Positions 22,501 to 23,306 of a DNA stretch of 64,000 nt are shown here, one piece after another. Source of the stretch: Callorhinchus milii (Eukaryota); contig NW_024704742.1 in NCBI RefSeq assembly GCF_018977255.1, positions 81,346,001 to 81,410,000 on the forward strand. The letters are read 5' to 3'. The notes under the pieces were generated by a model that saw only the letters and a program-made list of their open reading frames with translations, was not told where the DNA came from and did not search any database. A program made the translations under genes and the position numbers. Numbering within the stretch: the first letter of the stretch is position 1; the number at the start of each line of letters is the position of its first letter.

Positions 22501-23306
22501 CCCACATCATTGGGGTGTATGGTCCATAGGGTGGAGTCTATTTCTTTTAACCACTCTGGTTCTGCCGCCAGAAGAGGCAGAACATGGGAAGATGAATTGT
22601 GAGTGTGCCGAATAAATTCAAACATGGTAAAAAGTGAGAGGGGATCAATACACAGTTTATAAATCCGCAAGCACGGGTCGTATAAAATGTCAGGGCAAAG
22701 TTCGGTGAAATTTGGTGACCAGTTTGCCTTCCTGACCATTTGCCCTAAGTCCTTTGGGCTGAACCCATCCGCTATTCTTAATGTTACATGAGGGTCAGAA
22801 TTATTACCTTTAAAATAAAGCTGCTCCTCCGTTGTCAGAGTACATGCAGCTGCAATACCCTGCGGTCCCAAATAGAGGAAATGAGCCTGAATAGTGGAAG
22901 CAACCGCGACATGCTCTTTGAACCGAGTTATGTCCACTTCCTTGTTGTCGATGTAGAAAGCCGTACAATGCAATGGGGAAGTAGGTGGTGTTAAAACATG
23001 CTCCAAAAAATAACATTCAAGAAGTGGCTCACTAACATAAAGTAACATGGTAGAATATAACACCTCAGGCATTTTCAATGTCCAACAAAAATAACCTGGG
23101 GATTGTAGTTTCTGAGAGCTGGGAGAAACCAAGGAGCACAGTTTTGGGTATTCGCGTTCGGGTGCCAATAAGGTAATGCCATCCGGGGTACATTGGATGA
23201 TTATCCCCATTTTACAGAGCAGATCTCGCCCACACAGATCAATTGGTAATTCGCTATTTACCAAAAACTGATGGTAACCCTCAATCGTACCGTCACCTAT
23301 ATCCTG
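19574..23306 (-). pseudogene. pol: pol (protease C-terminus, 2H phosphoesterase, RT, RNase H, integrase N-terminus and core), frameshifted
   Basis: Protease DLCGRDLL; RT QYPL, SPCNTPILPV, WRFVQDLR, LPQG, YVDD (21966-21977); RNase H FVDGS/AELTA/TDSRY; integrase MDFI/SDNG/VERANG. Frameshifts near 21500-21470, 20250 and 19810. Confidence 0.93.
22620..23100 (-). other. CNPase-like 2H phosphoesterase domain inside Pol
   Basis: In-frame ~160-aa insert between protease and RT with LHCTAF (His codon 22970-22968) and PHVTL (His codon 22790-22788), plus a CNPase-like strand/helix pattern between them. Confidence 0.8.

Follow-up and report, generated by a model that had tools for sequence, protein, structure and literature searches.

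What occupies the long interval between the protease (PR) and the reverse transcriptase (RT) in the pol gene of an endogenous retrovirus (ERV) of Callorhinchus milii? The question is raised by a 64,000-nucleotide stretch of that genome (assembly GCF_018977255.1, contig NW_024704742.1, positions 81,346,001 to 81,410,000 of the forward strand), called the window throughout, in which the two enzymes had been noticed to lie about 190 extra residues apart. The sequence-only reading of the window took these residues for a phosphoesterase of the 2H superfamily, resembling CNPase, that might degrade innate-immune nucleotides or resolve 2',3'-cyclic phosphate ends. The insert is almost certainly a real 2H/CNPase-like domain that was kept by the virus. 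Its predicted fold, its conservation among relatives and the selection that acted on it are described first, followed by the state of the provirus and the functions that the domain may have served.

Position and predicted fold of the insert

The pol frame runs on the minus strand from stop to stop over 21423..23306 and codes for 627 amino acids (aa); it had been given as 21423..23264, with no strand. The translation (21426-23306, minus strand) starts inside the C-terminus of the protease (...LCGRDLLCKMG...), continues through the insert and then enters the RT. The strings quoted in the sequence-only reading, LCGRDLL, LHCTAFY, FLYLGPQGIAAACTLTTEEQLYF and PHVTLRIADGFSPKDLGQMV, are all present in it. 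As had been claimed, no stop interrupts the frame between the protease remnant and the RT, where the Pfam domain RVT_1 occupies residues 332-494. The insert was excised from 22551-23189 (minus strand) as a sequence of 213 aa, P0002, to which the residue numbers below refer; P0001 is the numbering used for the RT. The features of the frame are:

21423..23306, minus strand: open pol frame consisting of the C-terminal remnant of PR, a linker, the 2H domain, a second linker and the RT (list of open reading frames (ORFs), translation, Pfam).
23193..23306, minus strand: C-terminal remnant of the protease, ending ...LCGRDLLCKMG...; the window copy has lost the N-terminal part of PR (translation; alignment to the related copy L024).
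23112..23192, minus strand: low-confidence linker between PR and 2H, residues 1-26 of P0002 (predicted local distance difference test, pLDDT, 44-63 by block).
22605..23111, minus strand: predicted CNPase-like 2H phosphoesterase fold, residues 27-195 of P0002, ~170 folded residues (AlphaFold model, VIA-align, Foldseek).
22962..22970, minus strand: first catalytic motif, H-C-T (H74 and T76 of P0002), which aligns with LHCTT of CNPase.
22782..22790, minus strand: second catalytic motif, H-V-T (H134 and T136 of P0002), which aligns with SHITL of the host CNPase.
21825..22313, minus strand: RT core (Pfam RVT_1, E 8.8e-23), residues 332-494 of P0001.

The two histidines, H74 and H134, are 60 residues apart, just as had been read (codons 22968-22970 and 22788-22790), and each H-x-T motif is followed by a hydrophobic residue (HCTA and HVTL). 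The related copy L024, in the same genome, holds one open frame of 1379 codons with RVP at residues 39-121, the insert, RVT_1 at residues 421-583, RNase_H, rve and MLVIN_C; 299 residues thus lie between its RVP and RVT_1 domains. An ordinary gamma-type Pol has ~80-100 residues between PR and RT, and the estimate of ~190 extra residues depends on this figure.

An alignment of 52 family members, A1, was used both as a profile and as the input to AlphaFold2. Compared with the sequences of the PDB, the A1 profile gave 19 distinct matches at E<=10, all 19 of them CNPase (best E 0.051), and the alignment pairs LHCT of the insert with LHCTT of CNPase. The AlphaFold2 model of P0002 obtained with A1 has a mean pLDDT of 78.6 and a predicted template modelling score (pTM) of 0.72. 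In this model, strands start at residues 74 and 134, in keeping with the two-lobed alpha+beta fold of the superfamily, in which each motif sits on a central beta strand, and the ends (residues 13-27 and 199-213) are of low confidence; the 2H domain is a small one that is predicted with confidence to fold.

Two structure searches with the model point to the same protein. Foldseek against the PDB gave 51 matches at E<=0.001 and, among the matches listed, all are the CNPase catalytic domain or goldfish RICH (best E 7.5e-8). VIA-align, which is independent of Foldseek and was run over 48,161 chains, placed mouse CNPase (2xmi_A) first with Z 16.3, 167 residues aligned and a root-mean-square deviation of 3.6. 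At ranks 2-21 stand only other 2H enzymes (Z 8.9-6.1), including bacterial CPDase, LigT, rotavirus VP3 (Z 8.0), mouse hepatitis virus (MHV) ns2 (Z 7.6), Usb1, YjcG, Acb1 (Z 7.0), AKAP18 (Z 7.0), plant CPDase, ASCC1 and the poxvirus (penguinpox) phosphodiesterase (PDE) of cyclic GMP-AMP (cGAMP) (Z 6.1); at rank 22 the score falls to Z 4.1 and the folds are unrelated. The protein-language-model neighbours of the insert are the tRNA-ligase CPDase and 2H-SAK clusters (score 0.93).

The host has its own CNPase gene, at one locus (contig C23), which reads ILHCTTKF, LFITPRTVGARVVLTEKQL and SHITLA, the same pattern as the insert. When the family profile was aligned with the last exon of this gene, hhalign gave a probability of 75% (E 2.5e-5) and paired PHVTL with SHITL. 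The proposal that the insert is a CNPase-like 2H phosphoesterase, and the prediction of a 2H fold that went with it, were therefore upheld: the profile matches in the PDB are CNPase only, both structure searches put CNPase at the top, the first 21 VIA-align matches are all 2H enzymes and the host CNPase has the same pattern. Because H74 and H134 align with the CNPase motifs and the model superposes on CNPase, the two histidines probably lie in one active-site cleft.

Several observations weigh on the other side. As a single sequence, the insert has no match at E<=10 in Pfam or, by phmmer, in the PDB. The Foldseek TM-scores are only ~0.5, and the placement of both histidines in the cleft rests on the superposition with CNPase. 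The insert does not reach the curated cut-off for membership of the Pfam CNPase family (PF05881), which is touched by one of the 52 family members at E 0.011; another Pfam family, 2_5_RNA_ligase2, is touched by five of the 52 (best E 0.012), and both scores are far under the curated cut-offs. Run over the genome, PF05881 finds the host CNPase gene only and no ERV copies. Two positions ahead of the second His, the hhalign alignment pairs S of the host CNPase with D of the window; S or A is commonest there among the 70 family sequences, and mouse CNPase has Arg. The relationship to CNPase is thus a deep one, since BLASTP finds no match between the insert and the last exon of the host CNPase, PF05881 finds the host gene only, and a single family member approaches that profile. 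The insert is best described as a domain that is predicted to fold like the catalytic domain of CNPase and that stands outside PF05881 by the curated cut-off.

Conservation and selection

When 1.84 billion cluster representatives were searched exhaustively with HMMER, 81 proteins matched the insert at E<=0.001, one of them at E<=1e-10 and none at E<=1e-30. Scanning of 28 of the 81 with Pfam revealed retroviral domains in 21; the seven that are without any Pfam family are all short (198-403 aa). Eleven relatives contain RVP as well as RVT_1, and in every one of them the region that matches the insert is found between these two domains. Six relatives are named by species and all are from teleosts (Pelmatolapia mariae, Corythoichthys intestinalis, Perca fluviatilis, Danio aesculapii, Danio rerio and Metynnis hypsauchen); all are annotated as uncharacterised or hypothetical. 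Residues 40-250 of P0001 gave no match at E<=0.001 among 819 candidates in a word-indexed search of proteins of lengths 344-1098.

Conservation was counted by column in 70 sequences, namely the insert of the window and those 69 of the 81 matches that span both motifs, with a mutual identity of at most ~50%. In the first motif, H74 is kept in 68/70 and T76 in 63/70, with S in another 2/70. In the second, H134 is kept in 69/70, and T or S is found at position 136 in 69/70. Other well kept columns are G111 (70/70), P133 (66/70), L137 (65/70), L148 (68/70) and G149 (68/70). By these counts the columns that hold the catalytic His and Thr/Ser rank with the best-kept of the whole 2H domain, and since the representatives are identical at no more than ~50% of positions, the conservation is strong and far beyond chance.

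The 991-Mb host genome contains 21 matches to the insert at 17 distinct places. The motifs, whose survival in related ERV copies bore directly on the sequence-only reading, are kept at 16/17 (motif 1) and 17/17 (motif 2) of these places; L019 has Cys instead of the first His. A second ERV lineage, L017-L020 (G000 contigs C15, C2, C30 and C1), has the same order of nucleocapsid (NC), PR, 2H and RT. Its 2H domain is 32-36% identical to the insert in L017-L019, and 57% in L020, where the match is short; its motifs read LHCTALF and PHLTLQ.

Seven copies have open frames across the 2H domain and fall into three sublineages (L001/L002, L004-L006 and L007/L008). The ratio of nonsynonymous to synonymous substitution rates (dN/dS) was calculated by the method of Nei and Gojobori over 166 codons of the domain. 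Between sublineages it is 0.12-0.21 in all 16 pairs; within sublineages it is 0.33-1.17 (5 pairs). For the RT, two comparisons of 201 codons gave 0.06 and 0.10. Low ratios between sublineages and high ratios within them indicate that the virus kept the 2H domain under selection. This is the pattern of a functional viral domain, and the ratios point to constraint on 2H while the virus replicated, somewhat weaker than that on RT, and to neutrality after integration. A point that tells against the strength of this evidence is that dS exceeds 1 in the comparisons with L007/L008, so those values are saturated.

The window copy and its closest relative, L002, differ with a dN/dS of 1.17. The sequence-only reading had stressed that both catalytic motifs are intact although the provirus is dead. 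The statement is true and carries no weight: with a ratio of 1.17 in the closest pair, intact motifs reflect the young age of the copy and not selection by the host.

Trees of 2H and RT were compared for 16 of 21 candidates, each of at least 550 aa, with more than 50% coverage of 2H and more than 80% of RT, and with the RT behind the 2H match; P0008, P0009, P0030, P0041 and P0083 were left out. Most deep nodes are poorly supported, so congruence of the two trees can be judged for one grouping only. This is the sole strongly supported deep grouping of the RT tree, the window family with P0050 (support 100/99). It is not rejected by the 2H data (approximately unbiased (AU) test, p 0.573), the constrained tree being slightly better. 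These data are consistent with, and do not prove, inheritance of 2H together with RT.

One of the sequences left out of the trees, P0030 (843 aa), is unlike the other relatives. Its RVT_1 (202-365) is flanked by partial 2H matches, one at residues 12-79 and the other at 465-533, and the protein may consist of two partial units in series or be a mis-assembly.

The provirus in the window

The provirus is a class I fish-type retrovirus with an integrase like that of murine leukaemia virus (MLV). Its Pol domains follow in the order RVT_1, RNase_H, Integrase_H2C2 and rve, in broken frames, and the copy in the window is a dead, non-autonomous, decaying relic and not a host gene. Beyond the open pol frame, the following parts can be recognized:

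24331..24499, minus strand: remnant of the long terminal repeat (LTR), 5' side (repeat common to 14347-14525).
23301..23837, minus strand: N-terminal remnant of gag, in which the ORF holds MGQSFSS... (ORF list, alignment to L024).
20167..21516, minus strand: RT connection, RNase H and zinc-binding domain of the integrase (Integrase_H2C2), in a frame other than that of RT, with the frame break near 21423-21516 (Pfam).
19808..20278, minus strand: integrase core (rve), in another frame again (Pfam).
15950..19573, plus strand: non-LTR retrotransposon (endonuclease and RT), 3.6 kb, between pol and env (Pfam Exo_endo_phos and RVT_1; the L024 alignment is interrupted at 2361/2365).
14523..15950, minus strand: env remnant, 83% identical to L024 933-2361; the portion matching L024 below 933 (TM match) is missing (alignment to L024).
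14347..14525, minus strand: LTR remnant, 3' side (repeat common to 24331-24499).

The two LTR remnants differ by 7 mismatches in 179 columns and by one 10-base gap in an AT run. A deletion of ~2.06 kb has removed the rest of gag and the N-terminus of PR; L024 6103-8165 is absent, and the junction lies at window positions 23301-23304. The same deletion is found in L002 and L003, which lie on other contigs or at other places. L002 aligns with the window unbroken from 24147 to 22227 at 94.7% identity, and L003 spans the deletion junction at 98.6% and is without a further ~90 bases. It seems that a deleted, non-autonomous form that kept 2H and RT multiplied. The non-LTR retrotransposon at 15950-19573 (plus strand) is a clean insertion with a G+C content of 53-61%. 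Comparison of the family profile with the env ORF of L024 gave no match (probability 1.4%), so no 2H domain was detected in the env of this family.

Twelve sequencing runs from four studies contain part of the stretch, and four of them (X1, X6, X7 and X12) are guessed, not recorded, to be RNA. Contigs of the runs guessed as RNA cover the 2H region at 95-100% identity and say nothing firm about transcription; one such contig, of 3006 bases, bridges the gag-PR deletion junction. A contig from X6 joins window position 20589 to 23575 and skips 2985 bases; two extra letters stand at the joint, neither strand shows GT..AG ends, and the contig may represent another deleted copy rather than a splice.

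Two arrays of repeats were also seen. Seven tandem copies of a 16-base unit, TTAAACAACCTTAATA, occupy window positions 23901-24044, a part of the leader separating the LTR remnant from gag in which L024 is unaligned. Outside the provirus, positions 30992-32000 hold dense degenerate direct repeats with a spacing of 8-14 bases.

Function and known systems

The 2H domain is probably catalytically active. The account favored here, in which a CNPase-type 2H phosphoesterase in Pol acts on 2',3'-cyclic phosphates, has about an even chance of being right as a whole, mechanism included; that a 2',3'-cyclic phosphate is the natural substrate we put slightly below even. The domain would be made within Gag-Pol and would enter virions together with PR, RT and integrase (IN). 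The flexible linkers on either side would allow its release by the viral protease, or it might stay attached as an N-terminal extension of RT. With its two His-x-Thr motifs the domain would convert a 2',3'-cyclic phosphate into a 2'-phosphate and a 3'-OH, by analogy with CNPase-type enzymes. Its likely targets are RNA ends at which metal-independent RNases of the host have cut the primer tRNA or viral RNA or, alternatively, free 2',3'-cyclic nucleotides in the virion or the reverse-transcription complex. The same general argument on RNA ends is made for 2H domains of RNA viruses in a review passage (PMC9503650).

A consideration that weakens this choice of substrate is the ease with which 2H substrates shift between families; Acb1 and the poxvirus cGAMP PDE have the same fold. 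Since substrates are evolutionarily labile in this way, closeness to CNPase does not fix the substrate. Purifying selection, the presence of relatives in six teleost species and the two divergent lineages of this genome argue together for a real step in the viral life cycle, which would be either RNA-end repair or the removal of a signalling nucleotide. The wider proposal, that a clade of fish-type retroviruses carries a CNPase-derived phosphodiesterase along with RT to clean up RNA ends or nucleotides, is tentative and at present rather doubtful. If true, such an enzyme would act on the primer tRNA or the genome, reopening 2',3'-cyclic ends that antiviral RNases of the host had made there, or it would remove a nucleotide that serves as an alarm signal; it would be the first enzymatic counter-defence inside a retroviral Pol.

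In a different explanation, the domain destroys 2',5'-oligoadenylate (2-5A) or cyclic dinucleotides (2'3'-cGAMP) that are made when the products of reverse transcription are sensed, in the manner of coronavirus ns2/NS4b, rotavirus VP3, phage Acb1 or the poxvirus cGAMP PDE. The 2H fold is common to VP3, ns2, Acb1 and the penguinpox enzyme, with the Z scores given above, and matches in the BFVD database of viral protein models include bat coronavirus ORF4b and several Acb1 proteins. The host has STING and OAS-like genes, the latter as four tandem genes (G000:C8:9857539-9882207) and a further locus (C1:108396392-108399595), and an enzyme that accompanies RT would be in a good position to act on such signals. 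However, the predicted fold is far closer to CNPase (Z 16.3) than to the known degraders of 2-5A or cGAMP (Z <=8.0), and all six named relatives come from teleosts, a group not known to have OAS. In the host genome, a loose first look for KEN domains (Pfam KEN, four matches at two loci, nine candidates) found none of the RNase L type; both loci gave matches to IRE1 and to no chain of RNase L, and because the look was loose the absence of RNase L is tentative. For the part of the sequence-only reading that invoked 2-5A and RNase L, the host does have OAS, but this part is weakened by the lack of an RNase L-type KEN domain in this first look and by a fold nearer to CNPase. On balance, destruction of immune nucleotides is an unlikely role, though one to keep in view.

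The other explanations deny the domain a viral enzymatic role, or any existence. It might be a non-catalytic module that acts as a spacer, mediates dimerisation, binds RNA or regulates how PR/RT mature, with the His motifs as leftovers; the Arg that precedes the second His in mouse CNPase is indeed not kept in the family. But few columns of the 70 sequences are kept as well as those of the catalytic His and Thr/Ser, which makes leftovers unlikely, and the motifs are kept in two lineages that are only ~33% identical; a non-catalytic module is thus quite improbable. That the host has retained the window copy as a 2H gene of its own is more improbable still. Its frame of 627 codons is open and is covered by contigs of the runs guessed, not recorded, as RNA; against this stand the dN/dS of 1.17 with the closest copy, a provirus with the gag-PR deletion, breaks in the pol frame, an inserted LINE (long interspersed nuclear element) and a truncated env, the presence of the same deletion in two other copies, and a frame that lacks a start context of its own because it begins inside the PR remnant. 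Finally, two H-x-T triplets could have arisen by chance in an unstructured Pol linker that holds no real domain, as the lack of a Pfam or PDB match for the single sequence might suggest. The 81 proteins matched at E<=0.001, the conserved motif columns, the confident predicted fold and a CNPase Z of 16.3, far above unrelated folds, leave this a negligible prospect, and it was ruled out.

The reading of the insert as a CNPase-type phosphoesterase in Pol can now be set beside known systems. It is rare for a retrovirus to have an enzyme other than PR, RT/RNase H and IN. The textbook exception is the retroviral dUTPase, which likewise is an extra nucleotide-handling enzyme in the Pro/Pol polyprotein and is carried into virions; its fold and chemistry are unrelated to those of 2H, and the polyprotein positions are different. 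Cellular CNPase consists of an N-terminal P-loop (PNK-like) domain, the catalytic domain and a C-terminal lipid-anchor tail. Vertebrate CNPase, with fish RICH, is the best structural match of the insert by a wide margin, over chain residues 160-378 of 2xmi_A (216 residues), and CNPase and the insert have in common the pattern LHCT... L(F/Y)xxPxxxxAxxxLTxxQL ...H(I/V)TL, found in the host CNPase as well. The differences are that sequence identity is only 15-20%, that the insert is embedded in a viral polyprotein and not in a cellular gene, and that it has neither P-loop domain nor lipid-anchor tail; PR and RT flank it directly and leave no room for them, and Pfam finds no other domain.

The AKAP7-like viral 2',5'-PDEs (ns2/NS4b, the torovirus enzyme and rotavirus VP3) share the fold of the superfamily (Z 7.5-8.0) along with its two His motifs and, like the insert, are viral enzymes within or beside replicase proteins. 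They belong to another family of the superfamily, with a Z about half that for CNPase. According to a 2024 paper on viral capture of AKAP7-like PDEs, they trace to host AKAP7-like genes; the paper makes no mention of retroviruses or CNPase (PMC10835031).

Closer parallels come from fish. A review passage, citing Basta et al. 2009, states that the epsilon-like ERVs of ray-finned fish sometimes encode a CNPase or macro domain (PMC4977317), and another, citing Mazumder et al. 2002, records 2H sequences in fish retroviruses (PMC9503650). The sequence-only reading had mentioned earlier sightings of 2H domains in retroviruses of fish, and these passages confirm it; by their account 2H/CNPase sequences in fish retroviruses are already on record and the kind is not new. 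The insert appears to be of the same kind, its named relatives being from six teleost species. A functional study of a retroviral 2H domain was not found in full-text searches of a library of non-subscription papers. Among viral models in BFVD, the best match is an unnamed model of 1072 residues (E 1.3e-11, TMq 0.71); next are models labelled "Envelope polyprotein" from walleye epidermal hyperplasia virus 1 and walleye dermal sarcoma virus (E 1.2e-9 and 6.0e-9), the ids of the three best viral matches being Q9WHI8, A4GTG3 and Q2VF30_1. These record labels offer an unverified lead that the predicted 2H domain may lie in Env in the exogenous epsilonretroviruses, as opposed to Pol here, and that its placement differs between lineages. 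If the Env placement in the walleye viruses is true, retroviruses have placed or acquired this enzyme more than once.

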